64,000 bases of DNA from an uncultured Nitrososphaeria archaeon (lineage in GTDB: Archaea; Thermoproteota; Nitrososphaeria_A; Caldarchaeales; Wolframiiraptoraceae), in the NCBI GenBank assembly GCA_964451435.1, contig CAYVHW010000001.1:740-64739 (forward strand). The letters are read 5' to 3'. Of the stretch, positions 43,667-64,000 are shown in pieces (positions within the stretch are counted from its first letter, which is position 1; every line of letters starts with the position of its first letter). The notes beneath the pieces were generated by a model. It worked only from the letters and a program-made list of their open reading frames with translations, searched no databases and was not told where the DNA came from. The translations under genes and the position numbers were made by a program.

Positions 43667-44533
43667 ATGAGATTTAGGCCCGTTCTAAGGCCACTGCTCT
43701 GCAAACCCGTGATAGATAGGCTTCTAAGGGCCAGAGATCATGAAGAGGTTGTTAAGATCTCATTAGATCTCGGCAGAAGCCTCCATGAATGCTCTATTCG
43801 AGAGGAGGGAGTTATGATAGATGATCAGCTGATAAGGTGGGAGGAATTGGAGAGAGCGTCGAAGAGGGAGAGGGATATATTCACGGTAGCTGATGGTAGG
43901 CTTCTCTCGCTCTCGATCTCAGGCAGACACTTCTATAAACTGGTCTTCATAGGCTGGGGGCATCCACCAACCCTAGAGATAGATGGAATCCACATGCATA
44001 GGATCAAGGACATAACCCCGGATAGGGATGCTTGGATGAAGGTTAAGCTATGCGGAGACCTCAGATGTAAAAGAGTGTTGGATACATGCATGGGGCTTGG
44101 ATACACGGCGATAGTAGCCTTAAAGATGGGGGCGTGCAAGATCATCACGGTCGAGGTAGATGAGAATGTCGTTGAGCTAGCGAGGCTGAACCCTTGGTCT
44201 AAGGAGCTCTCAGATGAGAGGATAGACTTCAGGCTTGGAGATATAAGAGAGTTGATAGATGGATTCCGTGGGGAATTCGATGCAATAGTACATGATCCTC
44301 CGAGATTCTCCCTAGCCGGAGAACTCTATAGCCTCGAATTCTATAGAAAGCTGAATAAGGCGTTGAGGTTGGGTGGGAGGCTCGTCCACTATGTCGGCCA
44401 GCCTGGGATCGTTAAGGGTAGGGCGATCTGGAGGGGCGTTATGAGGAGGTTGAGGGAAGCCGGATTCGATGTGAAATATGATTCGAGGTCTCGATGCGTC
44501 TATGGGGTTAAGCTAAGAGATCTCAGCCCATAA
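43667..44533 (+). CDS. class I SAM-dependent methyltransferase (COG2521-like, DPPxF motif)
   Basis: 288 aa with a Rossmann MTase core (VLDTCMGLGYTAI ... EVDEN ... IVHDPPRFS). The target is unknown. Confidence 0.5.
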   Translation: MRFRPVLRPLLCKPVIDRLLRARDHEEVVKISLDLGRSLHECSIREEGVMIDDQLIRWEELERASKRERDIFTVADGRLLSLSISGRHFYKLVFIGWGHPPTLEIDGIHMHRIKDITPDRDAWMKVKLCGDLRCKRVLDTCMGLGYTAIVALKMGACKIITVEVDENVVELARLNPWSKELSDERIDFRLGDIRELIDGFRGEFDAIVHDPPRFSLAGELYSLEFYRKLNKALRLGGRLVHYVGQPGIVKGRAIWRGVMRRLREAGFDVKYDSRSRCVYGVKLRDLSP

Positions 44534-45581
44534 TCATCGACATTATAGCCTTCTGGACGTGGAGCCTATTCTCGGCCTGATCGAATACCACCGAGTGGGG
44601 GCCATCGATCACCTCATCCGTCACCTCATATCCCCTATCGGCTGGGAGGCAGTGCATGTAGATCACATCCCTCTTCGCGACCTCAAGCTTCTCCGAGTCG
44701 CAGATCCAGTCCCTATTCTTCTCGAATAGCTCCTTCATCCCATCGAAGTCGGGCTTCGAGGCCTTCGGAGGAATATAGTTTAGGCTCAGCCAAGACTTTG
44801 GATAAACTACATCAGCGCCCTCGAAGGCCGCCTTCATATCATGGACTATCTCGAATGACCCGCCGAACTCATCAGCATACTTCTTACATTGTTCGATCAC
44901 CTTTGGATCTAGGTCGAATCCCTTTGGGTGAGCTAGGACGACGTCCATCCCAAACTTTGTCGCGACTAAGACGGCGCTTTGGGGGACGGCTAGGGGCTTC
45001 TCGACGCTTGGGGTGTATGCCCAGCTCATCACAAACTTCTTTCCCTCGACCTTCCCCAACTTCTCCTTAATCGTCATTATATCTGCCATGGCTTGGCATG
45101 GATGATACATGTCGCACTCCATGTTTATCACGGGGACATCGGCCCACCTCGCAAACTCTCTAATGATCCTATTCCCTCGGCCATAGATCCACTTAGCATG
45201 CTTCCCATAAATCCTAATGGCTATGCCATCACCATACCTTGAGAGAACCCTCGCGACATCGGCGATCCTCTCAGTCGTGTAAGCTATCTCATCTCCTGGG
45301 AGGGCTGGGGTGTAGATGGCGTCATGTGGGTCCAGAAAGTGGGCGTGGCCTCCGAGCTGCGTCATCCCAGCCTCAAAGCTATTCCTAGTCCTGAGAGATC
45401 TATTATAGAAGATCAGGAATAGAGTCTTCCCCTTGAGATATGGGTGCTCGACCTTCCTAAACTTCCTCTTCAAGTCCATGGCGGCGTCGAGGATTTGGTC
45501 AAGCTCCTCCCTAGTCCACTCAATCGTCGTTATCCAATCCCTACCACGATACATTCCAACATACTTGGGTAGCTCGGACAT
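44523..45581 (-). CDS. transcarbamylase-fold protein, non-canonical (YgeW-like/unknown specificity), paralogue A
   Basis: 352 aa. Carbamoyl-P motifs are present (SLRTR, HPCQ, HCLP), but the OTCase D..SMG motif is replaced by VYPKSW and no ATCase R-x-Q-x-ER is present. It is about 40 aa longer than OTC/ATC. Confidence 0.7.
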   Translation of the reverse strand: MSELPKYVGMYRGRDWITTIEWTREELDQILDAAMDLKRKFRKVEHPYLKGKTLFLIFYNRSLRTRNSFEAGMTQLGGHAHFLDPHDAIYTPALPGDEIAYTTERIADVARVLSRYGDGIAIRIYGKHAKWIYGRGNRIIREFARWADVPVINMECDMYHPCQAMADIMTIKEKLGKVEGKKFVMSWAYTPSVEKPLAVPQSAVLVATKFGMDVVLAHPKGFDLDPKVIEQCKKYADEFGGSFEIVHDMKAAFEGADVVYPKSWLSLNYIPPKASKPDFDGMKELFEKNRDWICDSEKLEVAKRDVIYMHCLPADRGYEVTDEVIDGPHSVVFDQAENRLHVQKAIMSMIMG

Positions 45582-45616
45582 CTAGATCCACCGAGAGAAG
45601 GGTATCGATGAAGGGT

Positions 45617-47002
45617 TTAAGCTTTTCCACCTCCACGAATCGGGGATAATCTCTCTGGACGGCCTCTCTTAACATATTCTCCATATCCCTCGCGTCCAAG
45701 AACCTCTCCATCCCTATAGATTATCTCGCCTCTTAGGATGGTCATGTAGATCCTCCCCCTACACCTATACCCCTCATACGGCGTCCACCCAGATCTTTGA
45801 TGGAGTTCATCAGCCTTAATCATCCACTCACGGTTTAGATCGATCACGGTTAGATCCGCGTCCGAGCCTATCGCTATAACTCCCTTCTTGGGATAGAGCC
45901 CAAACCTCCTCGCGGGATTCTCGGAGAGTAGTCTAGCGAGATCCATGAGCGTGATCCTTCCCTGATTAACCCCCTCACTCAACATGAGTGGAAATAGGGT
46001 CTCGATCCCCGGCAGCCCGCTCCTTATCGGCCAAATATCACTCCATCCAGGCTCTCTATCTTCCTTGAATGTTGAGTAATGGTCTGTCGCAACCATATCT
46101 ATCAACCCACTTCTAAGACCCAGCCATAGAGCCTCCAAGTCCTCTCTCAATCTAAGGGGTGGGGTCATCTTGAGGTATGGGCCAAGCTTCTCAACATCAT
46201 CCCTCGTGAATATCAGGTAATGAGGGCATGTCTCACAGCTTATATTGACTCCACGATATTTCGCCTCCTCAATAAGCTTCAACCCCTCCATCGTCGTCAA
46301 GTGAACTATATGTATCCCGCATCCAGTCGCCCTCGAATAGGCTATAACCCTACCTATCCCCTCAACCTCCGCAAGCCTCGGCCTAGACTCATGGTATGCC
46401 ATCGGATCTCTCCTATCCATAGACTTTAGCCTCTCGGTGTAGAGGTCTACGAGGAATCCATTCTCAGCGTGGAACATGCATAGTCCCCGACCCTTAACCA
46501 TCTCCATAAGCCTCAAAATATCTCGATCGTCTATCATGTATGGCTTGCAGAGGAATAGCTTGAATGAATTGACTCCAAGATCTATCAAAGAGTTTGGATC
46601 GAATCCTTCTAAGCTCTGTATATTTCCCGCATGTAGGCCGAAGTCTATGCGAGACCATCTCTCGCCGGCCTCGATCTTTTCTCTCAAAGCATCGGTGGTG
46701 ATATACGGCGTATCGGTAGGCATCTCGATTATCGTCGTGACCCCTCCAGCGGAGGCCGCCAAGCTTATCGACCTAAAATCCTCTCTCGGCCCAAAGTGTT
46801 TTGGATCATAGGCGTGGACGTGGACATCTATCGCTCCTGGGAGCACGTATCTCCCATTCAGATCTATTTCAATGTCTCCCCTCGGTAGATGATTTATCGA
46901 CGCTATGGAGATAATCTGTCCTCGATCGATCGCAACCCCGGCCTCGAACACACCCTCTCTAAGGACGAGCCTACAGTTCTTCAATACTAGGTCGACGGTC
47001 AA
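45617..47002 (-). CDS. cyclic amidohydrolase (hydantoinase/dihydropyrimidinase/allantoinase family)
   Basis: 461 aa. Metal ligands DVHVH are present, and VNSFKLF is the NSFK carboxylated-Lys motif of DHPase/hydantoinases (absent in type I dihydroorotases). Confidence 0.7.
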   Translation of the reverse strand: MTVDLVLKNCRLVLREGVFEAGVAIDRGQIISIASINHLPRGDIEIDLNGRYVLPGAIDVHVHAYDPKHFGPREDFRSISLAASAGGVTTIIEMPTDTPYITTDALREKIEAGERWSRIDFGLHAGNIQSLEGFDPNSLIDLGVNSFKLFLCKPYMIDDRDILRLMEMVKGRGLCMFHAENGFLVDLYTERLKSMDRRDPMAYHESRPRLAEVEGIGRVIAYSRATGCGIHIVHLTTMEGLKLIEEAKYRGVNISCETCPHYLIFTRDDVEKLGPYLKMTPPLRLREDLEALWLGLRSGLIDMVATDHYSTFKEDREPGWSDIWPIRSGLPGIETLFPLMLSEGVNQGRITLMDLARLLSENPARRFGLYPKKGVIAIGSDADLTVIDLNREWMIKADELHQRSGWTPYEGYRCRGRIYMTILRGEIIYRDGEVLGREGYGEYVKRGRPERLSPIRGGGKA

Positions 47003-47060: not shown

Positions 47061-48095
47061 CTACTCATACAGTTTCTTACTCATGGTTAGGGCTAAGACC
47101 GCCATCTTGACGTATAATCCGTTCTCGGCCTGCTCGTAGATCACAGACCTCGGCCCATCCATAACCTCATCAGACGCCTCCTCACCCCTCAAGACTGGTA
47201 GGACGTGGGTGACTATCCCCTTCTTGTCCATTAGGTCGACGAGATCTTGGGTTAGACACCAATCCCTATATCTTCGATGGATCTCAAGCTCCCTCTCAAC
47301 CCCGAACCTAGACGCACCAATGCTCAATAGTTCCCAGCTCGCCCAGCTTCTCGGGAAGACTACATGAGCGCCTTCAATCGCTGGTTTAAGATCACTTGTT
47401 ATCTCAAGGCTTCCACCGCTCCTTTCCGCATTCTCCCTCGCCACCTTGACTATCTCTGGATCTAGGTTGAATCCGGGTGGATGAGCTACGACCACATCCA
47501 TCCCAAACCTCGTCATTATCAATAGCTCGGCCTGAATGCTGCATAGTCCTCTGAGCCTTGAGGCATAAGCCCACATAATCGTATACTTCTTCCCCTCAAT
47601 CTTTCCAAGCCTCTCCCTGACGGTCATAAGGTCTTGGATCGCTTGGGTTGGGTGATAGGTGCAGCATGCCATGTTTATCACAGGCTTCTCGGAGTGTCTC
47701 GCATACTCCATCACCGTCCACCTCCCAAGCCCATACCTGTAGTCTATGGCCTTGTCGAGGCATCGAACCCCTATCCCATCACCATATCTCTCATACATCT
47801 TCGCCACATCCTTCAACCTCTCCCCAAACCCTATCCTAAGCGTCGAGACATCGATATATGACATATGTCCTCCGAGCAAGTTCATCCCAGCCTCGAATGC
47901 TGCTCTAGTTCTGGTCGATGGGGCGTAGAAGATCGCGAAGAAGGTCTTATCCTTTAGAAACTTTGGGATCTTCTCCCCTCTCCTATGCATTTTCTTGAAT
48001 TCCGATGCGAGTCTTATCGCCTCCTCTATCTCCTCAACGCTCCAGTCTTGAGTCGTGATCAAGTCTCTACCATATAGATCCACACCTATCTTCAT
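47061..48095 (-). CDS. transcarbamylase-fold protein, non-canonical (YgeW-like/unknown specificity), paralogue B
   Basis: 344 aa with STRTR, HPTQ, HVLP and VFPRSW in place of the SMG motif. It shares the unusual features of paralogue A. Confidence 0.7.
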   Translation of the reverse strand: MKIGVDLYGRDLITTQDWSVEEIEEAIRLASEFKKMHRRGEKIPKFLKDKTFFAIFYAPSTRTRAAFEAGMNLLGGHMSYIDVSTLRIGFGERLKDVAKMYERYGDGIGVRCLDKAIDYRYGLGRWTVMEYARHSEKPVINMACCTYHPTQAIQDLMTVRERLGKIEGKKYTIMWAYASRLRGLCSIQAELLIMTRFGMDVVVAHPPGFNLDPEIVKVARENAERSGGSLEITSDLKPAIEGAHVVFPRSWASWELLSIGASRFGVERELEIHRRYRDWCLTQDLVDLMDKKGIVTHVLPVLRGEEASDEVMDGPRSVIYEQAENGLYVKMAVLALTMSKKLYE

Positions 48096-48212: not shown

Positions 48213-48701
48213 TTGAGGAGAACTCTCCTAATTGATGCGGAAAAGTGTACTGGTTGTAGACTCTGCGAACTGGTCTGCTCATTTCAACATTACAAGGTCT
48301 TTAATCCAAGGAGGTCTAGGATAACGGTGATAAGGGATGAGGAGAAGGGAGTATTCATTCCGATGACATGCTTTCAATGCGAAGATCCCCCATGCATGAA
48401 GACCTGTCCAACCCACGCGATCTATAGGGATGAGAATGGAGCGATTAGAATAGATTATGAGAAGTGTATAGGCTGTAAACTCTGCATAATGTATTGCCCA
48501 TTCGGCGGAATCTCGATAGATCCCGTCACCATGAAGGTGATAAAATGCGATCTATGCGGGGGAGATCCAGAGTGTGTGAAGTATTGTCCGAAGGGAGCCA
48601 TACAGTATGTTAGGGTGGATGAGGTTGGGGTCAAGAAGAGGATCGAGGGTGCCAAGAAGATTCATGAGAGGATTAAGGTGATCATGGGAGGTGAATCCTA
48701 G
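48213..48701 (+). CDS. 4x[4Fe-4S] polyferredoxin-like small subunit (AOR partner, WOR5/YdhY/AorA-like)
   Basis: 162 aa with four CxxCxxCxxxCP-type motifs (CTGCRLCELVC, CFQCEDPPCMKTCP, CIGCKLCIMYCP, CDLCGGDPECVKYCP). TTG start. Confidence 0.8.
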   Translation: MRRTLLIDAEKCTGCRLCELVCSFQHYKVFNPRRSRITVIRDEEKGVFIPMTCFQCEDPPCMKTCPTHAIYRDENGAIRIDYEKCIGCKLCIMYCPFGGISIDPVTMKVIKCDLCGGDPECVKYCPKGAIQYVRVDEVGVKKRIEGAKKIHERIKVIMGGES

Positions 48702-48703: not shown

Positions 48704-50638
48704 ATGTATAAGGGGTATGCGGGGAGAATACTCCGCGTAGACCTAACGTCTAGAAATGTCAAGGTGGAGCCGCTGCCGGATGGATTGGCGTTAAACTATC
48801 TGGGCGGGACGGGATTCGCCGCTAGAATCCTCTGGGATGAAGTGAACGCTGAAACAGATCCACTAAGCCCGGAGAACGTCTTGATAATAGCGACAGGGCC
48901 CGTGAATGGAACGGCCTTCCCACCATCCGGGAGATATATGATGGCCTCAAAGTCTCCCTTGACGGGTATCTGGAGCGAGTCCCACGTCGGAGGCCACCTT
49001 GGACCAGAGCTGAAGTACGCGGGCTACGATATGATACTCGTGAAAGGTAGAAGCTCTGAACCAGTATACCTGATGATCGATGATGATAGGGTTGAGGTTA
49101 GGGATGCCAAGAACATCTGGGGTAAGGATACGAGGGAGACCGTGAAGACCCTATGGGATGAGCTTGGAGATAGATCGTTTAAGATCGCATGTATAGGGCC
49201 TGCCGGCGAAAACATGGTCAAGATCTCCTCGGTTATCTCGGAGATGGGGAGGGCGGCTGCCAGAACAGGTATAGGAGCGGTCTGGGGTAGTAAAAGGCTT
49301 AAGGCCATAGCGGTCAGAGGGTCGAAGGACATCGAGGTGGCTGATCCCGATGGATTCATGCAGCTCGTTAAGGAGTCGATCCGAATGTGCACCGAGGAGT
49401 TCTTCGGGAAGGCGGCTCAAGACACGCTTGGAAAGTATGGGACTCCATGCTTGGTCGAGATGCTCAACTCGATTGGAAGGCTTCCGACAAAGAACCATTG
49501 GACAGGTGTCTTCGATAAGGCCAACCTAATTGGCGGAGAGGCCGTAAGGAGCAGGTATAGGTTTGCTCAAGTGCCATGCTTGGCCTGCGTGATCCAATGC
49601 GGATATATATCATATATTCGAGAGGGAAGATATGCTGGGACGATCACAAAGGGGCCTGAGTATGAGTCGATCTTTGCCCTCGGATCAAATTGTCTTGTCC
49701 CGGATATCGAGGCCATAATCCACATGAACATGCTCTGCAACCTCTATGGGCTCGACACGATCTCGACTGGGAAGACTCTTTCATGGGCGATGGAATGCTA
49801 TGAGCATGGACTCCTGACGAAGGATGATCTAGATGGGATGGAGCTTAGGTGGGGGGATCTAGAGGCCATGATAAAGCTGATAGAGAAGATCGCGAGGAGG
49901 GAGGGGGTTGGAGACATCTTGGCCGAGGGTGCTAAGAGGGCTTCGGAGAAGATTGGGAGGGGAACCGAGAAATACGTGATCCACATCAAGGGGATGGAGG
50001 TCTCAGGCCAAGATCCAAGAGCGCATAAATCCGCAGGCTTATCCCTCGCGATAGCGGTTAGAGGTGCAGATCATCTAAGAGCATTATCTTCAATAGAGGA
50101 GCTTGGATTCACCCAGATAGTCACCGATCGATATGGTGAGGATAAGGTCGAGGCGTTGAGCGATAGGCTTAGCGAGGAGTATAAGGGCTTCTTGATAAAG
50201 GATCTCGAAGACTTATACGCGATAACAGACTCCCTAATCGTGTGCAAGTATGGGACCATGTGGCCTCCAATCTACTACTTCGATCACTTCGCGAAGCTCA
50301 TACCACTCCTAACAGGGATGAAGGAGTACGGTGATGTGAGCTATGTTAGGCTCGTGGCCGAGAGGATATCGAATCTTAGGAGGTGTTTCAACGTGAGGGA
50401 GGGGATAACGAGAAGGGATGAGAACCTGCCCAAGAGATTTACCGAGGAGCCCATGCCCCATGGACCAGCGAAGGGCCATGTCTGCAACCTTGAACCAATG
50501 CTCCGAGAATACTATCAATATAGGAGGTGGGATTATGAGACGGGTCTACCATATAGGGAGACGTTGGAGGAACTCGGCCTGAAGGATGTCGCGGATGAGC
50601 TTGAGGCCATGGGGAGGATTAAGAGGAGGGAGGGCTAA
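48704..50638 (+). CDS. aldehyde:ferredoxin oxidoreductase family tungsto(molybdo)pterin enzyme, paralogue 1
   Basis: 644 aa. The N-terminus (MYKGYAGRILRVDLTS) and the CLACVIQC motif (C-x2-C-x3-C) match the AOR family, with AFOR_N/AFOR_C architecture. Confidence 0.85.
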   Translation: MYKGYAGRILRVDLTSRNVKVEPLPDGLALNYLGGTGFAARILWDEVNAETDPLSPENVLIIATGPVNGTAFPPSGRYMMASKSPLTGIWSESHVGGHLGPELKYAGYDMILVKGRSSEPVYLMIDDDRVEVRDAKNIWGKDTRETVKTLWDELGDRSFKIACIGPAGENMVKISSVISEMGRAAARTGIGAVWGSKRLKAIAVRGSKDIEVADPDGFMQLVKESIRMCTEEFFGKAAQDTLGKYGTPCLVEMLNSIGRLPTKNHWTGVFDKANLIGGEAVRSRYRFAQVPCLACVIQCGYISYIREGRYAGTITKGPEYESIFALGSNCLVPDIEAIIHMNMLCNLYGLDTISTGKTLSWAMECYEHGLLTKDDLDGMELRWGDLEAMIKLIEKIARREGVGDILAEGAKRASEKIGRGTEKYVIHIKGMEVSGQDPRAHKSAGLSLAIAVRGADHLRALSSIEELGFTQIVTDRYGEDKVEALSDRLSEEYKGFLIKDLEDLYAITDSLIVCKYGTMWPPIYYFDHFAKLIPLLTGMKEYGDVSYVRLVAERISNLRRCFNVREGITRRDENLPKRFTEEPMPHGPAKGHVCNLEPMLREYYQYRRWDYETGLPYRETLEELGLKDVADELEAMGRIKRREG

Positions 50639-58232: not shown

Positions 58233-58340
58233 ATTAAGCACCTCAATAACCAAAATGATCTTGATGATAGATAAGTGATTCATCTTAACATGGAAAAATC
58301 TTAAATCGGAGATAGGTCGAGATCATGAGGGTGTCGTCGA

Positions 58341-58811
58341 ATGCCATACATCTACGCCGATCCATCGAGGTGCACTGGATGCGAGATATGCGTCTTAACA
58401 TGTTCATTCACATACTTCAAGGTCCTAAATCCGAAAAAGGCTAGGTTGAGGGTCGTGAGGATGGAGCCCGCAATAGATCTAGTGATCGCTTGCAGGAATT
58501 GTGAGAAGGCGCCGTGTATGGAGGCGTGTCCAAACGAAGCCATCAAAAGAACATCTAAGGGGATAATCGTGATAGATGAAGGGAGATGCGATGGATGTGG
58601 AAGATGCATCGAGGCATGTCCCTTAGACGCCATCCACATACCCCCCAATGGGAGAGCCCCGATAAAGTGCGTGGCCTGCGGAGCATGTGTTCAAGCATGC
58701 CCCGTGGGATGTCTCAAGATAGCTTATAGCTTTGAGGAGGCGTTTGAGAAGCGAAGGAACTATGCTGAGAGACTTAAGGAAATAGTCTTGAACTTGAGGA
58801 GTGGTGGATAG
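58341..58811 (+). CDS. 4x[4Fe-4S] polyferredoxin-like small subunit, paralogue 3
   Basis: 156 aa. MPYIYADPSRCTGCEICVLTC..., four Cys clusters. Confidence 0.8.
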   Translation: MPYIYADPSRCTGCEICVLTCSFTYFKVLNPKKARLRVVRMEPAIDLVIACRNCEKAPCMEACPNEAIKRTSKGIIVIDEGRCDGCGRCIEACPLDAIHIPPNGRAPIKCVACGACVQACPVGCLKIAYSFEEAFEKRRNYAERLKEIVLNLRSGG

Positions 58812-58898
58812 CTAGGATCCATTAGCTCGGTCAAAATCTTCGATTCAAGTTGGAGATTGGATAGATTTTATATGGGGCGATTCACCGACTTATTCGGC

Positions 58899-60812
58899 AT
58901 GCGGTATAAGGGGTATGCTGGTAGAATTCTCTGGATAAATCTAACCCATGAGAAGGTTAGGGTCGAGGATTTCCCGGAGAAACTCGCGGAAAGATATCTC
59001 GGAGGATCTGGAATATGCGCGAGAATACTCTACGACCTAATCAAGCCCGGAATAGATCCACTCAGCCCAGAGAACGTCTTGATGTTCGCGACCGGGCCAT
59101 TAACCGGAACCCTCTTCCCCCAAGCATGTAGGTATACGGTCGCGGCGAAGTCTCCATTAACGGGTATTTGGGGAGAGTCTCATGCAGCTGGACACTGGGC
59201 TCCAGAGCTGAAGTTCGCGGGCTATGATGCGATAATATTTCTCGGGAGGGCGTCTAAGCCCGTCTATCTCTGGATAGATGACGATGAGGTTGAGATCAAG
59301 GATGCTGGAGAGATTTGGGGGAGAACGGTCCTAGAGACCGACGACATCCTAAGAGAAGAGCATGGAAATGATGTTAAGGTTGCTTGCATAGGTCCCGCTG
59401 GAGAGAACTTGGTCAGATATGCGGCGATAATGAATGATAGGTATAGGGCTGCTGCTAGATCTGGGATTGGGGCGGTTATGGGGAGCAAGAACCTAAAGGC
59501 CATAGCGGTGAGAGGCTCAAGGGACATCGAGGTCGCGGATCCAGAAGCATATATGGAGCATGTTAGGAGATGGCATCGAAAGATGCTCAGCCACCCATTC
59601 ATGCCCGATAGGGCGAAGTATGGGACAACTAACTTGATCGAGCTTATGCAGAAGATCGGGAGGTTGCCAACCTATAATCTCCGTCAAGGGGTCTTCGACG
59701 AATACTATAAGATCGGCGGGGAGATCATTTACAGGAAATATCTCATTAAGCCCGTAGCTGACTTCGCGTGCCTCCAGAGATGTGGGAGATACACGGCGGT
59801 CTATAATGAGCCCTATAGGTGCATGGGCGGCGGCCCCGAGTATGAGACCCTCTGCTCCCTAGGATCGAGGTGCGGGATATCGAATATCGAGGCGATCCTA
59901 TACGGGAATTGGCTCTGCAACAATCTGGGACTCGACTCTGTCTCCGCCGGCGGAACGATCTCATGGGCGATGGAATGCTATGAGCTTGGCCTGATATCGA
60001 GGGATGAGCTGGATGGACTCGACCTAAGATTCGGTAATGAGGAGGCGATGATCGAGCTACTCATAAAGATCGCTTATAGGAAGGGGGTTGGAGACCTATT
60101 GGCGGAGGGGAGCTGGAGGGTTGCGAAGAAGATCGGCAGGGGAACCGAAAGATACGTGATGCACGTCAAGGGCCAGGAGATAGCATCTCAGGAGCCTAGA
60201 GCCCAGAAGTCCATGGGTCTGGCCATAGCCACGGCCGCGAGGGGGGCGGATCACCTCTATGGGTTCCCGGTCTTGGATGAGGTCGGTTTCGAGAAGGAGA
60301 TTAGGGAGAGGTTTGGGGAGGAGTATCTGCCCGAGATCGCCGATAGGCTGAATCCGAAGTATAAGGGGTTCATGGTTAAGGAGTGCGAGGACTATATGGC
60401 CGTGGTGGAGGCGGTTGGGGTATGCAAGTATGGAACCCAGATCCCCCCAGTCTTCTACTATCAAGACATAGTGGATGCATTGAGGGTCACATGTGGAATG
60501 GATGTAGATGTCAGAAAGCTCAAATTGATTGGGGAGAGGATAGTGAACCTGAATCGAGCATTCAACATCAGAGAAGGAGTAAGTAGGAGGGATGACACCC
60601 TACCCGAGAGGTTAACGAAGGTTCCAGCCCCCCTAGGGCCGGCCAAGGGCCACGTCGTCGAACTAGATCAGATGCTTGACGAATACTATCGATGTAGGGG
60701 ATGGGATCTAGAGACCGGTAAGCCGACCTATGAGAAATTAGTCTCACTAGGATTGGAGGATGTCGCAGAGGATCTATTGAGGAAAGGATTGATAAGGAAG
60801 GCTGAGACCTAA
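58899..60812 (+). CDS. AOR family tungsto(molybdo)pterin oxidoreductase, paralogue 3 (divergent Fe-S motif)
   Basis: The start is reassigned to the ATG at 58899 (MRYKGYAGRILWINL), collinear with the other AORs. The TTG at 58857 in the ORF track would add 14 unconserved residues. The cluster motif is ACLQRCGRY...PYRC, i.e. C-x3-C instead of C-x2-C-x3-C. Confidence 0.8.
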   Translation: MRYKGYAGRILWINLTHEKVRVEDFPEKLAERYLGGSGICARILYDLIKPGIDPLSPENVLMFATGPLTGTLFPQACRYTVAAKSPLTGIWGESHAAGHWAPELKFAGYDAIIFLGRASKPVYLWIDDDEVEIKDAGEIWGRTVLETDDILREEHGNDVKVACIGPAGENLVRYAAIMNDRYRAAARSGIGAVMGSKNLKAIAVRGSRDIEVADPEAYMEHVRRWHRKMLSHPFMPDRAKYGTTNLIELMQKIGRLPTYNLRQGVFDEYYKIGGEIIYRKYLIKPVADFACLQRCGRYTAVYNEPYRCMGGGPEYETLCSLGSRCGISNIEAILYGNWLCNNLGLDSVSAGGTISWAMECYELGLISRDELDGLDLRFGNEEAMIELLIKIAYRKGVGDLLAEGSWRVAKKIGRGTERYVMHVKGQEIASQEPRAQKSMGLAIATAARGADHLYGFPVLDEVGFEKEIRERFGEEYLPEIADRLNPKYKGFMVKECEDYMAVVEAVGVCKYGTQIPPVFYYQDIVDALRVTCGMDVDVRKLKLIGERIVNLNRAFNIREGVSRRDDTLPERLTKVPAPLGPAKGHVVELDQMLDEYYRCRGWDLETGKPTYEKLVSLGLEDVAEDLLRKGLIRKAET

Positions 60813-60829: not shown

Positions 60830-61783
60830 TCATGTCTTTAATATGATCTTCAGGGTTTCTCGGTTCATCGCCTTCTCAAATGCCTCCTCCCACCTCTCAA
60901 TTGGATAGACTCCATCTATCATGTAGTCGACCTTCACGAGCTTCTCCTTCAAAGCCCTTAGAGCTGGTTTAAATGGCCCACATCTAGACCCGATCAACCT
61001 TATCTCATTCACCACGATCTCCGATAAGGGTATCCTCGAAGGCTTGGCGGTCGTGGTCTTTAGCACCAAGAAGCCCATGGGCTTAACGAGCTTAACCGCC
61101 TCCATTATCGCGTCAGGATTTCCAGTAGCATCTACAACGACATCAAACTTCACGCTTTGATCAAGCTCATCTATGGTTGAGGCGTTTATCCCAAGCCTCC
61201 TCAAAAGCTCCAACTTCCTCTGATGTCTTCCAACCACAATTAAATCCACATAATATCTCAAGACCTGAGCTATCAGTTGCCCCAATCTACCGTCTCCAAG
61301 GAGCAAAGCCTTCCATGAAGGCTTTAGGGGAATTTGGTTCGGGATCTCGTATGCGGCTGCCAACGGCTCGGTGAAGACAGCTTCAAGGTCTGATACCTCA
61401 TCTGGAACTATGTGGAGATTCTTTTCAGGTAGGGTTAGGTATTCTGCGAATGCTCCATCCTTACCCCTGATCCCAAGAGCCAGCCTATTAGTGCAATGCT
61501 TCTCTAGTCCCTTTTTGCAGAACTCGCATTCACCGCATCCAATGTTTATCTCGCCTACGACTCTCTTGCCGATAAGCTCTTTATTATCGGAGTCCTCGAC
61601 CACCCCGACGAACTCATGGCCTAAAACCCCCTTAAACCCGGTATATCCTCTCAAGATCTCTAGATCGGTTCCACAGATCCCAGCATATCGAACCCTTATC
61701 AAAGCTTCACCCGATCTCCTCTTAGGTTTTGGATAATCGGCATGGAGCTCGATCCTCTCACCGTTAAAGTATAGGGCTTTCAT
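60830..61783 (-). CDS. Zn-dependent alcohol dehydrogenase, MDR family (threonine/sorbitol dehydrogenase-like)
   Basis: 317 aa with GICGTDLE and GHEFVGVV catalytic-Zn motifs, structural-Zn cysteines (CGECEFCKKGLEKHC), and a Rossmann GLGxxG. Confidence 0.8.
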   Translation of the reverse strand: MKALYFNGERIELHADYPKPKRRSGEALIRVRYAGICGTDLEILRGYTGFKGVLGHEFVGVVEDSDNKELIGKRVVGEINIGCGECEFCKKGLEKHCTNRLALGIRGKDGAFAEYLTLPEKNLHIVPDEVSDLEAVFTEPLAAAYEIPNQIPLKPSWKALLLGDGRLGQLIAQVLRYYVDLIVVGRHQRKLELLRRLGINASTIDELDQSVKFDVVVDATGNPDAIMEAVKLVKPMGFLVLKTTTAKPSRIPLSEIVVNEIRLIGSRCGPFKPALRALKEKLVKVDYMIDGVYPIERWEEAFEKAMNRETLKIILKT

Positions 61784-61840: not shown

Positions 61841-62689
61841 TCATCCATGAGATCCATGGCCTCCCCTCAAGATGTCTAAGAACTCCTCCACGAACTCCAT
61901 CGTCCTAATCGTATTTGTTGGGATGCCATAATCCTTTAGATCCTCAGACAATAGCGTTACCTGAAGGGGCGATAGGCCGGCGTCGATCAATAACCTCTTA
62001 TCAGAGATTATCTCCTTCGCCGAGCCATCCGCAAACTTCTTGCCATCCTTCAAGATTATTATCCTCTCGGCGAACTCGGCTGCGAGGTATAGGTCATGGG
62101 TTATTACCATGACAGTCTTACCGCGGTCCCTAAACCTTTGAAGCAACCTCATTATCTGAAGGCTTCTCCCAAAGTCTATTCCAGTCGTAGGCTCATCGAG
62201 TATCAGGAACTCGGGCTCCATGGCTAGGACCGAAGCTATCGCAACCCTATGCTTCTCGCCGACGCTTAGGAGGTGGGGGAACGCGTTTAGAGGCTTCTTC
62301 AAGTCGACGAACTTTAAGGATTCCTCAACCCTCCGCTTAACATCCTCTTCAGGTATCCCTAGGTTTCTGGGCCCGAAGGCTATCTCCTCGAATATGGTTG
62401 AGGCGAAGATCTGATGCTCTGGATTCTGGAAAACGTATCCAACTATCCTCGCGCACTCCGCGACGGTCATCTTCTTAGTATCCTTCCCCTTGATGAGAAC
62501 CGTTCCCTCAGTCGGCTTAAGCAATCCATTCATGAGCTTCGCGAGAGTGGTCTTTCCAGACCCGTTCTGACCCAATAACGCTATGAACTCCCCCGGCTTA
62601 ATGCTCAAGCTCACACCATCTATCGCCTTAACCCCTCCTGGATAGACGTAGCTCACATCCCTAACCTCAACTATGGCCTGCTCCTTCAT
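61841..62689 (-). CDS. ecfA: ECF transporter ATPase component (EcfA2/A')
   Basis: 282 aa. GQNGSGKTT, LSVGEKHRVAIASVLA, and a C-terminal ECF-type helical tail. Confidence 0.75.
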   Translation of the reverse strand: MKEQAIVEVRDVSYVYPGGVKAIDGVSLSIKPGEFIALLGQNGSGKTTLAKLMNGLLKPTEGTVLIKGKDTKKMTVAECARIVGYVFQNPEHQIFASTIFEEIAFGPRNLGIPEEDVKRRVEESLKFVDLKKPLNAFPHLLSVGEKHRVAIASVLAMEPEFLILDEPTTGIDFGRSLQIMRLLQRFRDRGKTVMVITHDLYLAAEFAERIIILKDGKKFADGSAKEIISDKRLLIDAGLSPLQVTLLSEDLKDYGIPTNTIRTMEFVEEFLDILRGGHGSHG

Positions 62690-63533
62690 CCAAAACCCCC
62701 CTTAAGATGCTTGATGCCTCCCTCAAGGATATTGGGATTGTTGGGAGATTTACCCCAGATCTCATGAGATTATATGCTATCTCGGAGACTTGAGGCGGTC
62801 TGAAGCCCGCCCTCTCAGGTCTAATCTCCCTTGAGAAGACCTCCTTAGGATCTCCCTCCAAGACTATTCTCCCCTCATTCATGACAACTATCCTATCTAC
62901 ATACTCGACGGCCCACTCAATCCTATGCTCAACGGCTAAGATCGTCGTATCGAATTCCCTGCGGAGCTTGAGGATCAAGTCTGTCACACGCTTAGTCCCT
63001 TGCGGATCGAGCTGGGACGTAGGCTCATCCAAGATTATGACTCTAGGTCTAAGGGCTAGAACCGATGCTATCGCCAAGGCTTGCTTCTGGCCGCCGGATA
63101 GGCTTGCGGGGGACCTATTCTCTAGACCGCTCAACCCAACGACCTCCAACACCTCCTTAACTCTCCTCTCGATCTCATCTTTTGGAAGCCCAAAGTTCTC
63201 CAAGGGGAAAGCGACCTCCTCATAAACAGATGTCGTGACGAGCTGCATCTCCGGATTCTGGAAGACTATCGTGACATACTTCGCTAGATCGGTTGGAGAG
63301 GCGGTTAGGGGATCTAGATCGAAGACCTTTACGCTCCCCTTAACCTCAGCCTTAATCACCCTAGGGATTATCCCCATTATCGTATAGCATAGGGTTGTCT
63401 TCCCACACCCACTAGGTCCCATCAAGATCACAAACTCTCCCTCATTTATCCTCAGCGATAATCCCTTCACCGCATAATCTTCCTCCTCTCTATATCGAAC
63501 CCATAGATCATCTATCCTTATCGCCGTGCCCAC
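62667..63533 (-). CDS. ecfA: ECF transporter ATPase component (EcfA1)
   Basis: 288 aa. GPSGCGKTT, LSGGQKQALAIASVLA. Overlaps ecfA2 by 23 nt. Confidence 0.75.
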   Translation of the reverse strand: MGTAIRIDDLWVRYREEEDYAVKGLSLRINEGEFVILMGPSGCGKTTLCYTIMGIIPRVIKAEVKGSVKVFDLDPLTASPTDLAKYVTIVFQNPEMQLVTTSVYEEVAFPLENFGLPKDEIERRVKEVLEVVGLSGLENRSPASLSGGQKQALAIASVLALRPRVIILDEPTSQLDPQGTKRVTDLILKLRREFDTTILAVEHRIEWAVEYVDRIVVMNEGRIVLEGDPKEVFSREIRPERAGFRPPQVSEIAYNLMRSGVNLPTIPISLREASSILRGVLDEGAGHS

Positions 63534-63539
63534 CCCGTC

Positions 63540-64000
63540 TCACCACCAGATTGGGATCCTGGTTAATATGATGAGTGAGATTATGTAAACGGCGATGAGC
63601 ATGCATAGCATGAATGTGTCGTAGAGCCTCCACCTCAACTCCCTAGAGAACGTCCTAGTCTTCATCACCCCAAAGCCCTTACTATCTAAGGCGACTCCAA
63701 GCTCCAATGCGCTCCTCATCATCCTTATCATTAGGGGCACGAAGATCGCTATATACTTCCTTATCCTGCTCGGGATGCTCCCCTTCTCAAGCTCAAGCGC
63801 CCTAGACTTCTGCGCATCCGTTATCGTCCTTATCTCGACTATGACTGTTGGAAGGAATCTAAAGGCGAGGATCGGAATATATGCGAGCCTATATGGGAGC
63901 TTCCATCTAACGAGAGCTTGAAAGAGGTCTCCAGGTCTAGATGTTATGAATATCACCGCTATGGCAATTATGGGGCTTAAGACGAGAAATGCCTTGCTGA
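63540..64000 (-). CDS. ecfT: ECF transporter transmembrane T component (EcfT/CbiQ family), 5' end beyond window
   Basis: C-terminal TM helices and the conserved Arg-rich coupling-helix region (SRALELEKGS...MMRSALELGVALDSKG). The ORF runs off the window end. Confidence 0.55.
   Translation of the reverse strand, partial: SKAFLVLSPIIAIAVIFITSRPGDLFQALVRWKLPYRLAYIPILAFRFLPTVIVEIRTITDAQKSRALELEKGSIPSRIRKYIAIFVPLMIRMMRSALELGVALDSKGFGVMKTRTFSRELRWRLYDTFMLCMLIAVYIISLIILTRIPIWW

Follow-up and report, generated by a model that had tools for sequence, protein, structure and literature searches.

On balance, the gene island described here would encode an archaeal form of reductive purine breakdown (2,8-dioxopurine type) that is linked to ferredoxin, with every step of the pathway inferred from homology and gene context. 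The original prediction for this DNA had laid out a stepwise pathway for cytosine or uracil. Purine degradation fits the island better, since the pyrimidine scheme needs only one ring-opening enzyme, one transcarbamylase, and an aminotransferase that is absent.

Gene Content and Conservation

The host is an uncultured sediment archaeon. ORF calling with Pfam and NCBIfam scans recovered all genes of the original prediction, each in its place in the 64-kb stretch of DNA analyzed here (the window). Positions 48213-56865 form a single, tightly packed plus-strand operon, in which ORF calling put neighboring genes 0-20 nt apart or overlapping by 4 nt. It encodes, in order, polyferredoxin 1, AOR1, a DHO_dh reductase with 2x[4Fe-4S], polyferredoxin 2, AOR2, a COG0402 amidohydrolase, and a ThrC-fold PALP protein. 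The parallel drawn earlier with the Escherichia coli ygeW-hyuA-ssnA-ygeX cluster was right, as five components of that cluster have archaeal counterparts in the window: the reductase, SsnA, HyuA, YgeW (twice), and a fold-type-II PLP enzyme. The gaps pointed out at that time are also real. The E. coli YqeA, YgeY, YgeX, and XdhA/B/C/D sequences gave no tblastn matches in the 64 kb, carbamate kinase and Xdh-type enzyme both being absent from the window, and the Pfam annotation of the remaining window sequence shows no aminotransferase.

Gene order is identical in loci from independently assembled genomes of this species (L001, L002, L010, and L059-L062), and distant lineages carry overlapping subsets of the island genes. 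Conservation of these genes among related archaea shows that the island is not a chance juxtaposition. Its description as a conserved unit for anaerobic N-heterocycle catabolism is supported. Further parts occur in sister clusters of Bathyarchaeia, Hadarchaeia, and Ca. Hecatella: carbamate kinase (CK), XdhD-like Mo-hydroxylases, XdhC/MocA, a YgeY-like peptidase, and a hydantoin racemase. Thus, L079 reads AH-TC1-ThrC-like-YgeY-like-TC2-CK-SsnA-like-CysK-like-DHO_dh-XdhBCA; L065-67 read HYD-Fd-SsnA-like-TC2-CK-XdhB/C/D-DHO_dh, and their XdhD-like protein shares 39% identity with E. coli XdhD; and L056 of Ca. Hecatella reads ThrC-like-PreT-PreA-CK-HYD-TC-TC-SsnA-like-Fd-AOR. In raw loci, not de-replicated and with phylogeny ignored, a HYD/SsnA-like/reductase triad is conserved: HYD lies divergently upstream of the SsnA-like gene in 40, and the gene directly downstream of the latter is DHO_dh in 21 and TrxR-like in 22. 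XdhD-like, XdhC, and MocA genes also adjoin the SsnA-like gene in related clusters. XdhC/MocA occur in 23/80 loci and ADP-forming acetyl-CoA synthetase in 20/80, counted in the same way.

The island might instead be a mosaic of several small pathways that run independently and have no substrate in common, for example hydantoin/allantoin-type ureide use (HYD, transcarbamylase, and CK), nucleoside deamination, and oxidation of peptide-derived aldehydes (AOR/ADH). Its modules do occur separately. Most soil Bathyarchaeia have TC1-CK-TC2-ThrC-like-CysK-like-deaminase without HYD, SsnA-like, and DHO_dh genes, many Hadarchaeia have HYD/SsnA-like/reductase without transcarbamylases, and L140 and the Thorarchaeal L141 combine Fd-AOR-DHO_dh with HYD but have no SsnA-like gene or transcarbamylase within 8 kb. 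HYD also has allantoinases as its second-best matches. Many contigs are short, however, so that a gene missing within 10 kb says little, and independent lineages (the window, L056, L065, L068, L079, L092, and L103) repeatedly combine the modules in a single operon or locus, which makes a mosaic improbable.

Transcarbamylases, Amidohydrolases, and the PLP Enzyme

TC1 (44523..45581, minus strand; OTCace_N and OTCace domains) and the more divergent TC2 (47061..48095, minus strand; STRTR, HPTQ, and HVLP motifs) are knotted-type transcarbamylases with 43% identity to each other. TC1 is YgeW-like, being 35% identical to E. coli YgeW and having the WAYxPSxxKPLxVPQ and MHCLPAD motifs in common with it. 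It has neither the OTCase DxxxSMG nor the ATCase RxQxER motif and carries T/P/E at the AOTCase specificity positions E92/N185/K302. TC1 exceeds the NF003384 AOTCase cut-off (322 vs. 288) and TC2 falls under all NCBIfam cut-offs; the YgeW equivalog scores 188 against a cut-off of 453, and ATCase scores of the two proteins are only 117-147 (cut-off 237-263). Judged by sequence, both belong to the knotted AOTC/SOTC/YgeW group without OTC, ATC, or AOTC specificity motifs, and identities as PyrB, ArgF, or AOTCase were rejected for the lack of these motifs. Their prediction as orphan, catabolic-type enzymes is supported by the carbamate kinase gene adjoining TC2 in 33/46 related loci (not de-replicated). 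The one such kinase tested, from L011, scores 428 with TIGR00746 (cut-off 358).

Between them lies HYD (45617..47002, minus strand), the HyuA counterpart, which PDB and E. coli HyuA comparison places among the hydantoinase/allantoinase-type cyclic amidohydrolases with a binuclear metal center. Its top PDB match is L-hydantoinase 1GKR (320 bits), dihydroorotases reaching about 182 bits, and in its alignment with E. coli HyuA (33% identity) the HxH, carbamylated Lys, His, His, and Asp ligands coincide. HYD scores under the D-hydantoinase NCBIfam cut-off (325 vs. 393) and over the TIGR00857 pyrC_multi domain cut-off (288.5 vs. 279). These comparisons place it as hydantoinase-like rather than dihydroorotase-like. 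The putative second ring-opener is an SsnA-like COG0402 amidohydrolase (56868..58283, minus strand), which probably begins 15-20 codons after the first ATG. SsnA is its top NCBIfam family (395.6, cut-off 444), and it is 31% identical to E. coli SsnA, with SsnA-type motifs in common. A deaminase-type COG0402 aminohydrolase, AH1 (54243..55586, plus strand), is a candidate purine or nucleoside deaminase: its top NCBIfam match is 5'-deoxyadenosine deaminase (410.6, under the cut-off of 522), and its PDB matches include atrazine chlorohydrolase (281 bits), MTA/SAH deaminase (228), and 8-oxoguanine deaminase (193).

The ThrC-fold PLP enzyme (PALP; 55606..56865, plus strand) passes the NF006050 "threonine synthase" cut-off. 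Positions T85, T88, N154, S155, R160, and N188 of the Thermus thermophilus enzyme, which we take to form the threonine synthase phosphate pocket, are S, A, G, P, Q, and S in the island protein, and the S, A, and Q of this pattern recur in 31/33 cluster-linked ThrC-like homologs. Threonine synthase identity was rejected on these differences despite the cut-off. As a candidate lyase, the enzyme would act on diaminopropionate or a ureido-amino acid. Together, the features of the transcarbamylases, HYD, and the ThrC-like protein, with the hydantoin racemase gene beside HYD in L008/L009, point to new subtypes with catabolic functions.

That HYD, TC1, and the PALP enzyme each pass the cut-off of a biosynthetic or related family (TIGR00857, NF003384, and NF006050) could be read as biosynthetic genes lying together by chance, i.e., PyrB/ArgF for the transcarbamylases, PyrC for HYD, PyrD for the DHO_dh protein, and ThrC. 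We consider this very improbable given the residue and score evidence above for the transcarbamylases, HYD, and the ThrC-like protein. In addition, the DHO_dh protein, with its ferredoxin domain, is without the catalytic Cys/Ser loop, and pyrI or arg neighbors are absent; the genes that recur as neighbors are those for carbamate kinase, SsnA-like, Xdh, and AOR proteins.

Redox Enzymes

The reductase (50639..51799, plus strand) has DHO_dh and Fer4 domains and is a PreA/UacX-like FMN enzyme with a C-terminal 2x[4Fe-4S] region. Its top PDB match is pig dihydropyrimidine dehydrogenase (DPD), and it keeps equivalents of DPD K574, N609, K709, N736, and T737. In place of the DPD Cys671 loop it has a short ST-HY motif, so that the catalytic-Cys loop of DPD/DHODH is missing, and no PreT partner or NAD(P)H subunit was found in the window. 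This missing loop and the canonical AOR1 active site count against the purine reading, as does the Hadarchaeal L038, where Xdh and AOR genes occur together.

In the pyrimidine scheme, cytosine or uracil would yield dihydrouracil through the PreA-like enzyme, HYD would form N-carbamoyl-beta-alanine, and transcarbamylase phosphorolysis would give beta-alanine; transamination would then produce malonate semialdehyde for oxidation by AOR, with electrons returning to the reductase via the polyferredoxins. Such a redox-neutral loop would account for the AOR-reductase operon. The retained uracil-binding equivalents of Asn609, Asn736, and Thr737, the hydantoinase/dihydropyrimidinase superfamily membership of HYD, and the TudS-related gene upstream are in keeping with it, as is the L140 and L141 core, which would suit a substrate with one ring (a pyrimidine or hydantoin) and counts against the purine reading. 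A class-III aminotransferase does adjoin a DHO_dh-like gene in L039, but this is the only related locus with one among those whose unlabelled ORFs were annotated. The scheme leaves the SsnA-like hydrolase and the second transcarbamylase unexplained, as well as the conserved fold-type-II PLP enzymes (ThrC-like and CysK-like), which act on alpha-amino acids. Nor does it explain the hydantoin racemase adjoining HYD in L008/L009; dihydrouracil is achiral. In sister clusters, the reductase directly follows the SsnA-like gene beside XdhD-like, XdhC, and MocA genes. Pyrimidine catabolism is therefore unlikely.

Three polyferredoxin-AOR pairs, all on the plus strand, were identified by domain scans. 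Polyferredoxin 1 (48213..48701; multiple 4Fe-4S motifs, Fer4 family matches), 33% identical to E. coli YgfS and the YgfT N-terminus, precedes AOR1 (48704..50638; AFOR_N and AFOR_C domains) of the aldehyde:ferredoxin oxidoreductase family. Polyferredoxin 2 (51803..52324) overlaps by 4 nt the start of AOR2 (52321..54234), downstream of the DHO_dh gene, and polyferredoxin 3 (58341..58811), divergent from the SsnA-like gene, precedes AOR3 (58857..60812). Placement in an NJ tree gave three orthogroups. Orthogroup 1 (AOR1) is always upstream of the DHO_dh gene, orthogroup 2 (AOR2) lies downstream of it, and orthogroup 3 (AOR3) in other lineages adjoins either the SsnA-like gene or HYD; the positions of all three are fixed in the window, L019, L092, and L140, and L141 has AOR1 and AOR3. 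Bathyarchaeia-like archaea, Ca. Hecatella, and Thorarchaeota repeat the arrangements Fd-AOR-DHO_dh and HYD-Fd-AOR, which supports assigning the AOR/polyferredoxin genes to the island.

What the AORs do within a purine pathway can be stated only tentatively. They may replace the Xdh-type enzyme, performing two-electron chemistry at ring carbons; we know of no AOR-family enzyme acting on purines. With the same tentative weight, and provided that the pathway is one for purines, they may be ordinary aldehyde oxidoreductases that merely pass electrons from amino-acid- or sugar-derived aldehydes through polyferredoxin to the PreA-like reductase, an Xdh-type entry enzyme being encoded elsewhere in the genome. 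AOR1 has canonical aldehyde-oxidizing residues and is close to Pyrococcus furiosus AOR (474 bits, about 45% identity, Glu313 and His448 kept). The window-type reductase with its Fe-S domain and no PreT, the tight translational coupling across Fd1-AOR1-DHO_dh-Fd2-AOR2, the Fd-AOR-flavoprotein gene order, which presumably parallels AorABC of Aromatoleum, and the Hadarchaeal locus L038, which holds both Xdh and AOR, all agree with electron feeding. A lower-potential donor would also help, because 2,8-dioxopurine reduction is reportedly thermodynamically unfavourable with NAD(P)H. Against electron feeding, the Ca. Hecatella reductase has its own PreT and yet Fd-AOR3 follows the SsnA-like gene, and the compact operon TC1-CysK-like-SsnA-like-HYD-Fd-AOR3 of L068 has AOR3/Fd as its sole redox enzyme, with no other redox gene and no reductase to feed within 19 kb. 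Three orthogroups fixed beside hydrolases are unexpected for a generic feeder. AOR and Xdh genes also nearly exclude each other: AOR occurs together with Xdh/XdhC/MocA in 1/24 AOR-bearing loci (Fisher p = 0.004, relatedness ignored). Some other role is slightly less probable than either of these.

Flanking Genes and Proposed Pathway

Nucleoside/purine uptake genes flanking the clusters count for the purine reading. A nucleoside phosphorylase (PNP_UDP_1; 21980..22819, plus strand; Pfam match on an identical contig) is likely an upstream feeder step converting nucleosides to base and ribose-1-P, and its homolog (43% identity) shares an operon with Fd-AOR3-SsnA-like in L103. Pfam matches identify a Bmp/PnrA-type nucleoside ABC importer next to it (22889..28107, plus strand; ATPase, Bmp binding protein, and two BPD_transp_2 permeases), and Bmp-type transporters also flank L011, L068, and L140. 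Two MoeA paralogs (38596..41807, plus strand; MoeA domains in both), MoeA at 38596-39864 and a fusion to a periplasmic-binding-protein-like oxoanion domain at 39861-41807 (NF011068, 785.6, cut-off 534), are predicted to insert Mo or W into molybdopterin. The connection to the island of the TudS-related (DUF523) putative desulfidase (41871..42416, plus strand; NF045597, 137.7 vs. 130) is uncertain. On the other side, domain scans identify a Zn-dependent alcohol dehydrogenase (60830..61783, minus strand), found beside AOR3 only in the host's own species group, and an ECF-type importer (61841..64000, minus strand; the two ABC ATPases EcfA and EcfA', and CbiQ/EcfT running into the window end). In contig L062 (97% identical), the next gene after the ECF genes encodes a QueT-family S component (7-deazapurine-type substrates).

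In the proposed purine pathway, nucleosides would be imported by the Bmp system and split by the PNP-family phosphorylase, and purine-like bases could also come in via the ECF/QueT system. AH1 would remove an exocyclic amino group, and the PreA-like FMN/[4Fe-4S] enzyme, translationally coupled to two polyferredoxin-AOR pairs, would reduce and dearomatize the ring, the three AOR/polyferredoxin units serving as a low-potential redox module. The SsnA-like hydrolase would open the six-membered ring, drawing the unfavourable reduction forward, and HYD the five-membered ring to give a diureido acid. The two YgeW-like transcarbamylases would phosphorolyze its ureido groups to carbamoyl phosphate, with ATP formed by a carbamate kinase necessarily encoded outside the window in this species. 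From the diamino or ureido amino acid that is left, the remodelled ThrC-fold PLP enzyme would form pyruvate and ammonia. Two ring-openers, two transcarbamylases, and fold-type-II PLP enzymes fit the degradation of a bicyclic substrate via 2,3-diureidopropionate and diaminopropionate to pyruvate. If so, the two transcarbamylases could give extra ATP. They do not cleanly replace YgeY, because L079 has both two transcarbamylases and a YgeY-like peptidase.

Comparison With the Bacterial Pathway

The E. coli/Clostridium ygeW-hyuA-ssnA-ygeX cluster was shown in 2025 to carry out reductive urate degradation via 2,8-dioxopurine in gut bacteria, using XdhD, YgfK or the ferredoxin-type UacX (PF01180), SsnA, HyuA, YgeW with YqeA, YgeY, and YgeX. 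The archaeal core matches this logic, so the island's pathway is only partly "undescribed", as it had been called. Like the bacterial pathway, the island has a PF01180 reductase with Fe-S clusters (likened by family and type to Clostridium difficile UacX, Q181U4), an SsnA-like and a HyuA-like hydrolase, two YgeW-like transcarbamylases, and a PALP enzyme. None of these counterparts exceeds 35% identity to its E. coli enzyme, and they score under the NCBIfam equivalog cut-offs (SsnA, D-hydantoinase, and YgeW); the window is also without the Xdh-type enzyme, carbamate kinase, YgeY, and YgeX of the bacterial pathway. Both points count against the purine reading. Where that pathway uses a molybdenum enzyme, the archaeal island has tungsten-type aldehyde oxidoreductases and polyferredoxins instead, and it would in this respect be a new variant of a pathway known from bacteria.

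Gene content of the island

ORF calling with Pfam and NCBIfam scans recovered every gene that the original prediction had placed in the island. On the minus strand lie the transcarbamylase TC1 (44523-45581), the hydantoinase-type cyclic amidohydrolase HYD (45617-47002) and the paralogous transcarbamylase TC2 (47061-48095). A plus-strand operon of seven genes runs divergently from TC2, with intergenic gaps of 0-20 nt or a 4-nt overlap, in the order polyferredoxin, AOR1, DHO_dh protein with a C-terminal 2x[4Fe-4S] region, polyferredoxin, AOR2, AH1 and ThrC-fold PLP enzyme. The DHO_dh protein, a PreA-like reductase identified with Pfam, occupies 50639-51799, AH1 is a deaminase-type COG0402 enzyme by family scans and PDB matches, and the ThrC-fold enzyme spans 55606-56865. 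The second COG0402 protein, which is SsnA-like (56868-58283, minus strand), is divergent from the third polyferredoxin-AOR pair, that of AOR3; a Zn-ADH and an ECF-type importer come next. In the divergent intergenic regions at 48096-48212 and 58284-58340 no common operator or promoter motif was seen, only paralogy-derived repeats.

Two MoeA genes, one with a fused binding-protein domain, and a TudS-related gene precede the island. A nucleoside phosphorylase of the PNP family is encoded further upstream (21980-28107), together with a nucleoside ABC importer of the Bmp/PnrA type. These are directly preceded by a PHO4 phosphate transporter and PhoU (the whole group at 19977-28107), and this phosphate supply could serve phosphorolytic steps such as those of the nucleoside phosphorylase and the transcarbamylases. 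On L062, a contig 97% identical to the window, the ECF module at the window end continues just past the right end with a QueT-family S component (3048-3902 of L062), followed by a class I lysyl-tRNA synthetase gene. The QueT family is associated with uptake of 7-deazapurine, a queuosine precursor. The rest of the window also carries unrelated housekeeping genes. Grouped at 2580-5050 are cytidylate-kinase-like, nicotinate/quinolinate phosphoribosyltransferase-family and isochorismatase (nicotinamidase-type) genes, which may represent a pyridine-nucleotide salvage pair, and the sugar ABC transporter/GDPD region at 34000-38000 has a G+C content of about 0.43, against about 0.50 elsewhere.

Enzyme subtypes encoded in the island

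The two transcarbamylases are 43% identical to each other. In both, the 120s loop is extended, (K/R)SW stands where OTCase has DxxxSMG, and the RxQxER of ATCase is lacking. Under the published criteria, which are DxxxSMG for OTC, RxQxER for ATC and E92/N185/K302 for AOTC, this pattern places them in the knotted AOTCase/SOTCase/YgeW group (PMC4581275). TC1 passes the NCBIfam AOTCase cut-off but carries T/P/E at E92/N185/K302, and was rejected as an N-acetylornithine transcarbamylase. The segments WAYxPSxxKPLxVPQ and MHCLPAD are common to TC1 and YgeW; the YgeW equivalog models nevertheless score the two proteins at 188 and 156, far under their cut-off of 453, and PDB scores revealed no closely related characterised enzyme.

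HYD keeps all metal ligands and scores best in the PDB with L-hydantoinase (320 bits), followed by allantoinase and D-hydantoinase (about 265), while dihydroorotases reach only about 182; TIGR02033 gives 325 for a cut-off of 393. For the SsnA-like protein, SsnA is the top NCBIfam family, again under cut-off (TIGR03314, 395.6 vs 444; NF005540, 368.9 vs 455.5). Its first ATG adds an N-terminal extension of 15-20 residues seen in no homologue, and alignments begin near residue 18-21. The real start codon probably lies downstream.

The best PDB match of the DHO_dh protein is pig DPD, and equivalents of K574, N609, K709, N736 and T737 are kept. The loop with the catalytic cysteine (pig DPD C671, NLSCP) is deleted, and all window-type homologues have E(F/L)ST-HY instead. 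The protein scores 213.7 with the PreA model NF006183 (cut-off 335), and the window has no PreT (NAD(P)H/FAD) partner. Across the loci two PreA-like subfamilies were seen (window 50639-51799; L056, L070, L074, L076, L078, L093): the window type lacks the catalytic-Cys loop, has the ST-HY motif and is partnered by an AOR or SsnA-like gene, whereas the canonical type keeps SCPQG and is paired with a PreT-like subunit (L056 and L070 included).

The ThrC-fold enzyme passes the NF006050 'threonine synthase' model and aligns to Aquifex threonine synthase with 259 bits. At the positions of T85, T88, N154, S155, R160 and N188 of the Thermus thermophilus enzyme, which we take to be the phosphate pocket for O-phosphohomoserine, it has S, A, G, P, Q and S, whereas the same positions read T, T, N, S, R and N in two true threonine synthases. 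The S-A..Q pattern, which covers three of the six positions, recurs in 31 of 33 cluster-linked homologues. Because the residues differ at these presumed phosphate-pocket positions, the protein is not read as a threonine synthase, and the subfamily (33 loci) is likely mis-annotated as such in many archaeal genomes.

These motif and score comparisons, made enzyme by enzyme, ruled out a biosynthetic PyrB/PyrC/PyrD/ArgF/ThrC reading of the island. Identities to characterised enzymes are all low and fall under the equivalog cut-offs, and by sequence the island enzymes are predicted to be new subtypes.

Conservation in related archaea

The gene set recurs in related archaea. Contig L010, from the MAG of isolate AUK039, is 98% identical with gene order unchanged, and near-identical contigs were found in several metagenomes. 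Homologues of the marker proteins carry the names Bathyarchaeia, Nitrososphaerota, Hadarchaeota and Ca. Hecatella, so that Bathyarchaeia count among the nearest named relatives of this archaeon. A scan with a TC2 alignment, taking one genome per species, returned 46 loci (Bathyarchaeia, Hadarchaeales, Desulfurococcales); an SsnA-like family alignment, run against metagenomes, gave 80. Neighbours were labelled by BLAST best hit against a small reference set made up of proteins from the window, from E. coli and from neighbouring genes. Many of the contigs are short, and the loci include duplicates such as L056 with L077, or L065-67.

Within 10 kb of TC2, carbamate kinase was found in 33 of the 46 loci, the ThrC-like enzyme in 27, TC1 in 24, a COG0402 deaminase in 20, a CysK-like PLP enzyme in 13, a Bmp transporter in nine, and Xdh genes and AOR genes in six each. 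The kinase that was tested, from L011, passes TIGR00746 (428 vs cut-off 358). The original prediction was right that the window has no carbamate kinase: E. coli protein queries for carbamate kinase, YgeY, YgeX and Xdh (XdhA/B/C/D included) gave zero tblastn matches in the 64 kb. In some bacteria with the urate pathway, carbamate kinase is encoded elsewhere on the chromosome (PMC12507026; bioRxiv 10.1101/2025.04.24.650524).

The two nearest non-conspecific relatives (L008, L009) are arranged as TC2-ECF transporter-HYD-hydantoin racemase-ThrC-like-CysK-like-TC1-carbamate kinase. Their Asp/Glu/hydantoin racemase gene, between HYD and the ThrC-like gene (L009 15873-16619; L008 15858-16595), turned up neither in the window nor in any of the other loci retrieved.

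Among the 80 SsnA-centred loci, HYD is divergent and upstream of the SsnA-like gene in 40, and the gene directly after the SsnA-like one is a window-type DHO_dh in 21 and a TrxR-like flavoprotein in 22; in the window itself 5 kb separate the SsnA-like gene from that of the PF01180 plus 2x[4Fe-4S] protein. XdhC/MocA occurs in 23 of these loci, ADP-forming acetyl-CoA synthetase in 20, AOR in 14 and Xdh subunits in 10. In many Bathyarchaeia contigs (L058, L083-L086, L090, L091, L099-L101, L105-L108 and others) the position of DHO_dh is occupied by the TrxR-like flavoprotein (Pyr_redox_2, about 312 aa), and XdhC/MocA-like genes lie upstream of HYD.

Some loci reproduce the bacterial gene set almost in full (L079, L065-67, L056). 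L079 reads deaminase-TC1-ThrC-like-YgeY-like-TC2-carbamate kinase-SsnA-like-CysK-like-DHO_dh-XdhB-XdhC-XdhA, and L065-67 read HYD-polyferredoxin-SsnA-like-TC2-carbamate kinase-XdhB-XdhC-XdhD-like-DHO_dh-deaminase, where the XdhD-like protein is 39% identical to E. coli XdhD. In L056, from Ca. Hecatella orcuttiae, the order is ThrC-like-PreT-PreA-ParB-carbamate kinase-HYD-TC-TC-SsnA-like-polyferredoxin-AOR. Xdh-family enzymes are present in the sister clusters L065-67, L079, L111, L114 and L122, and YgeY-like M20 peptidases in L079, L016 and L140. Beside their purine-type clusters, Ca. Hecatella and a related lineage also have genes of the MtmB family (monomethylamine methyltransferase-like) and one for a corrinoid-binding protein (L056 1-171 and 17331-18716; L068 17896-19011).

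In Hadarchaeia-like contigs (L070, L074, L076, L078, L080, L093, L119, L120) two SsnA-type/reductase pairs stand side by side: the SsnA-like gene with a window-type DHO_dh, and a second SsnA paralogue (33-35% identical to E. coli SsnA) with a YgfK-like gene or a PreT/PreA pair. This arrangement suggests two different heterocycle substrates.

Purine or pyrimidine as substrate

The parallel with the E. coli ygeW-hyuA-ssnA-ygeX group, drawn in the original prediction, was well chosen, and the function of that cluster was solved in 2025 (PMC12507026; bioRxiv 10.1101/2025.04.24.650524). In BLASTP against the E. coli K-12 locus, TC1 and TC2 are 35% and 29% identical to YgeW, HYD is 33% identical to HyuA, the SsnA-like protein is 31% identical to SsnA, with SsnA-type motifs in both, and the polyferredoxins are 33-36% identical to YgfS and the YgfT N-terminus; YgfK, YgeX and YgeY had no match among the window proteins. 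At this level of similarity the resemblance serves as a lead and does not prove orthology.

In the bacterial pathway (PMC12507026; bioRxiv 10.1101/2025.04.24.650524), urate is dehydroxylated to 2,8-dioxopurine by XdhD/DOPDH (E. coli, C. difficile, C. sporogenes). YgfK then dearomatises 2,8-dioxopurine; in C. difficile this step falls to UacX (Q181U4), a PF01180 enzyme without FAD domain for which ferredoxin is the presumed donor. SsnA opens the six-membered ring and HyuA the five-membered one, giving 2,3-diureidopropionate. One ureido group is then taken by YgeW as carbamoyl phosphate, yielding ATP via YqeA, and the other by YgeY (the gene set has YgeW plus YqeA, or UacY, at the carbamoyl step), and YgeX converts diaminopropionate to pyruvate and ammonia. 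The same work explains reductase-SsnA adjacency by thermodynamic coupling.

We regard a purine-type pathway of this kind as slightly more likely than not to be the island's main function. A bicyclic purine accounts better than uracil for two ring-opening hydrolases and two ureido-cleaving transcarbamylases, for the conserved fold-type-II PLP enzymes, whose substrates are alpha-amino acids carrying a leaving group at the beta or gamma position, and for the hydantoin racemase beside HYD in L008 and L009. The SsnA-like/reductase pairing and the XdhD-like, XdhC and MocA neighbours point the same way, as do the nucleoside uptake genes, the QueT-type (7-deazapurine) ECF S component on L062 and the acetyl-CoA synthetase neighbours, which are consistent with a pyruvate-to-acetate end. 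Set against this evidence, the pyrimidine scheme of the original prediction, in which cytosine or uracil would be degraded, is distinctly unlikely, even though the reductase keeps uracil-type Asn/Thr residues and Fd-AOR-DHO_dh together with HYD occurs in L140 and the Thorarchaeal L141 with neither an SsnA-like gene nor a transcarbamylase within 8 kb. The two functions are not mutually exclusive. What stands of the original interpretation is a real and conserved island with a real AOR/ferredoxin link; its pyrimidine route gives way to a purine route that fits better.

Role of the AOR-family enzymes

All three AORs contain AFOR_N and AFOR_C (Pfam E-values 1e-82 to 1e-132). AOR1 scores 474 bits with P. 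furiosus AOR and 247 with BamB (4Z3W), and Glu313 and His448 are aligned and conserved; it is by sequence a classical AOR, an assignment that does not separate W from Mo or one substrate from another. In a neighbour-joining tree the three orthogroups are older than the divergence of these lineages, and each has a fixed position: AOR1 is upstream of DHO_dh, AOR2 is downstream, and AOR3 adjoins HYD or the SsnA-like gene. A separate sampling, built on AOR3 homologues and not on the other markers, returned Fd-AOR1-DHO_dh-Fd-AOR2-HYD-AOR3 plus a Bmp gene (L140) and, from a Thorarchaeote, Fd-AOR-DHO_dh ... HYD-Fd-AOR (L141). Small ThiS/MoaD-like genes beside Fd-AOR pairs (L139 1347-1646; L141 5820-6101) are probably for pterin cofactor synthesis.

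AOR and Xdh/XdhC/MocA genes occur together in only one of 24 AOR-bearing loci (Fisher p = 0.004, a value that ignores duplicates and phylogeny) and in none of 16 loci of at least 12 kb. Strict mutual exclusivity was rejected on the one counter-example, L038. The AORs might tentatively be seen as replacing the Xdh step, through a lactam-to-imine reaction or an acid-to-aldehyde reaction on a ring-opened carboxylate; in formal terms both resemble the known acid/aldehyde couple. Against such a direct role, the AOR active site is canonical for aldehydes, L038 carries both Xdh and AOR, and AOR-family enzymes are not known to us to act on N-heterocycles. Alternatively, the AORs may supply the reductase, which lacks an NAD(P)H subunit, with low-potential electrons by way of the polyferredoxins. 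A pure electron feeder fits poorly with Ca. Hecatella, where the reductase has its own PreT partner and yet Fd-AOR3 still follows the SsnA-like gene, and with the L068 operon TC1-CysK-like-SsnA-like-HYD-Fd-AOR3, which has no further redox gene within 19 kb. Since observations stand against both roles, we give each the same minority chance.

A bolder proposal, which we consider rather doubtful, is that the three orthogroups act on the purine skeleton itself, at ring carbons or the ring-opened carboxylate, in place of the Mo/Se Xdh-family enzymes. The AORs would then carry out C2/C8 hydroxylation and C6 deoxygenation, and the polyferredoxins would wire them to the Cys-less PreA-like reductase in an internally redox-balanced machine: hypoxanthine would give four electrons in two hydroxylations and take four in deoxygenation and dearomatisation. 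The two transcarbamylases would then yield two ATP per purine. If true, it would show an AOR-family enzyme working on an N-heterocycle for the first time and give archaea their first defined purine catabolic pathway.

Significance for archaeal metabolism

Subsurface archaeal communities count Bathyarchaeia and Hadarchaeia among their most abundant members. Archaea use the ribose of nucleosides, which leaves the bases, and metagenomic surveys predict DNA degradation by Bathyarchaeia in general terms only. The island offers a concrete, testable gene set for a predicted ATP-yielding purine fermentation in these lineages. It also draws attention to four enzyme subfamilies to which current pipelines give a wrong name or none: the two orphan knotted transcarbamylases, the ThrC-fold enzyme without the presumed phosphate pocket, the PreA-like reductase that lacks the Cys loop, and a clade of archaeal SsnA proteins. 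Three AOR orthogroups are tightly and anciently linked to heterocycle hydrolases, which suggests a physiological role for some of the many unassigned archaeal AOR paralogues, and the island may represent a tungsten/ferredoxin solution to chemistry that bacteria perform with Mo/Se hydroxylases.

Comparison with known systems

The original prediction had put the island forward as a candidate undescribed system. Its core, judged from homology and gene order, is best classed as an archaeal variant of the bacterial pathway published in 2025; several of its enzyme subfamilies are unnamed, and the role of the AOR family is possibly novel. Archaea, tungsten and AOR are not mentioned in either account of that pathway (PMC12507026; bioRxiv 10.1101/2025.04.24.650524), and a literature search for AOR with dihydropyrimidine dehydrogenase in archaea, or for 2,8-dioxopurine in archaea, returned nothing relevant. 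Shared with the urate pathway, at the level of enzyme folds gathered in one cluster, are a PF01180/Fe-S reductase (UacX being compared by description), SsnA-type and hydantoinase-type hydrolases, a fold-type-II PLP enzyme and a knotted transcarbamylase with a link to carbamate kinase, together with the reductase-SsnA adjacency and, in sister archaeal clusters, XdhD-like/XdhC/MocA genes. The differences are that the system is archaeal, that the window lacks Xdh and has three AOR-polyferredoxin pairs inside its operons, that two transcarbamylases stand where bacteria have YgeW and YgeY, that a ThrC-fold enzyme (in relatives also a CysK-fold one) stands where bacteria have YgeX, that the reductase lacks the DPD-type Cys loop, and that identities to the E. 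coli proteins are just 29-35%.

With the Pyd pathway, as far as its ferredoxin-dependent clostridial PydAc is described (PMC12507026 ref. 35), the island shares a PreA-like FMN/Fe-S reductase without NAD(P)H subunit and dihydropyrimidinase-type ring opening after it. Pyd, however, ends in beta-ureidopropionase and an aminotransferase, and has no SsnA, transcarbamylase/carbamate kinase pair or AOR. Carbamoyl-phosphate fermentations by arginine deiminase (cOTC plus carbamate kinase), agmatine deiminase (PTC plus carbamate kinase) and oxalurate/oxamate transcarbamylase likewise rely on transcarbamylase phosphorolysis of a ureido group and ATP from carbamate kinase, whereas the window transcarbamylases are of the knotted subtype, occur as two paralogues per cluster and would draw their ureido donor from heterocycle ring opening.

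Like P. furiosus AOR (1AOR), the window AORs have the AFOR_N/AFOR_C fold, with Glu313 and His448 conserved in AOR1, and like other AOR-family tungstoenzymes they have a small multi-cluster ferredoxin gene immediately upstream; the embedding of three paralogues among ureide hydrolases sets them apart. In the AorABC complex of Aromatoleum aromaticum, which we take to be 8C0Z, the gene for the flavoprotein AorC presumably follows the AOR gene, as in the window, but in the window the flavoprotein is PreA-like, with FMN and a site for binding heterocycles, and not a NAD-linked FAD subunit. The class II benzoyl-CoA reductase BamB has the AOR fold and reduces an aromatic ring, a precedent for AOR chemistry beyond aldehydes, although the window AORs are much nearer to classical AOR (474 against 247 bits).
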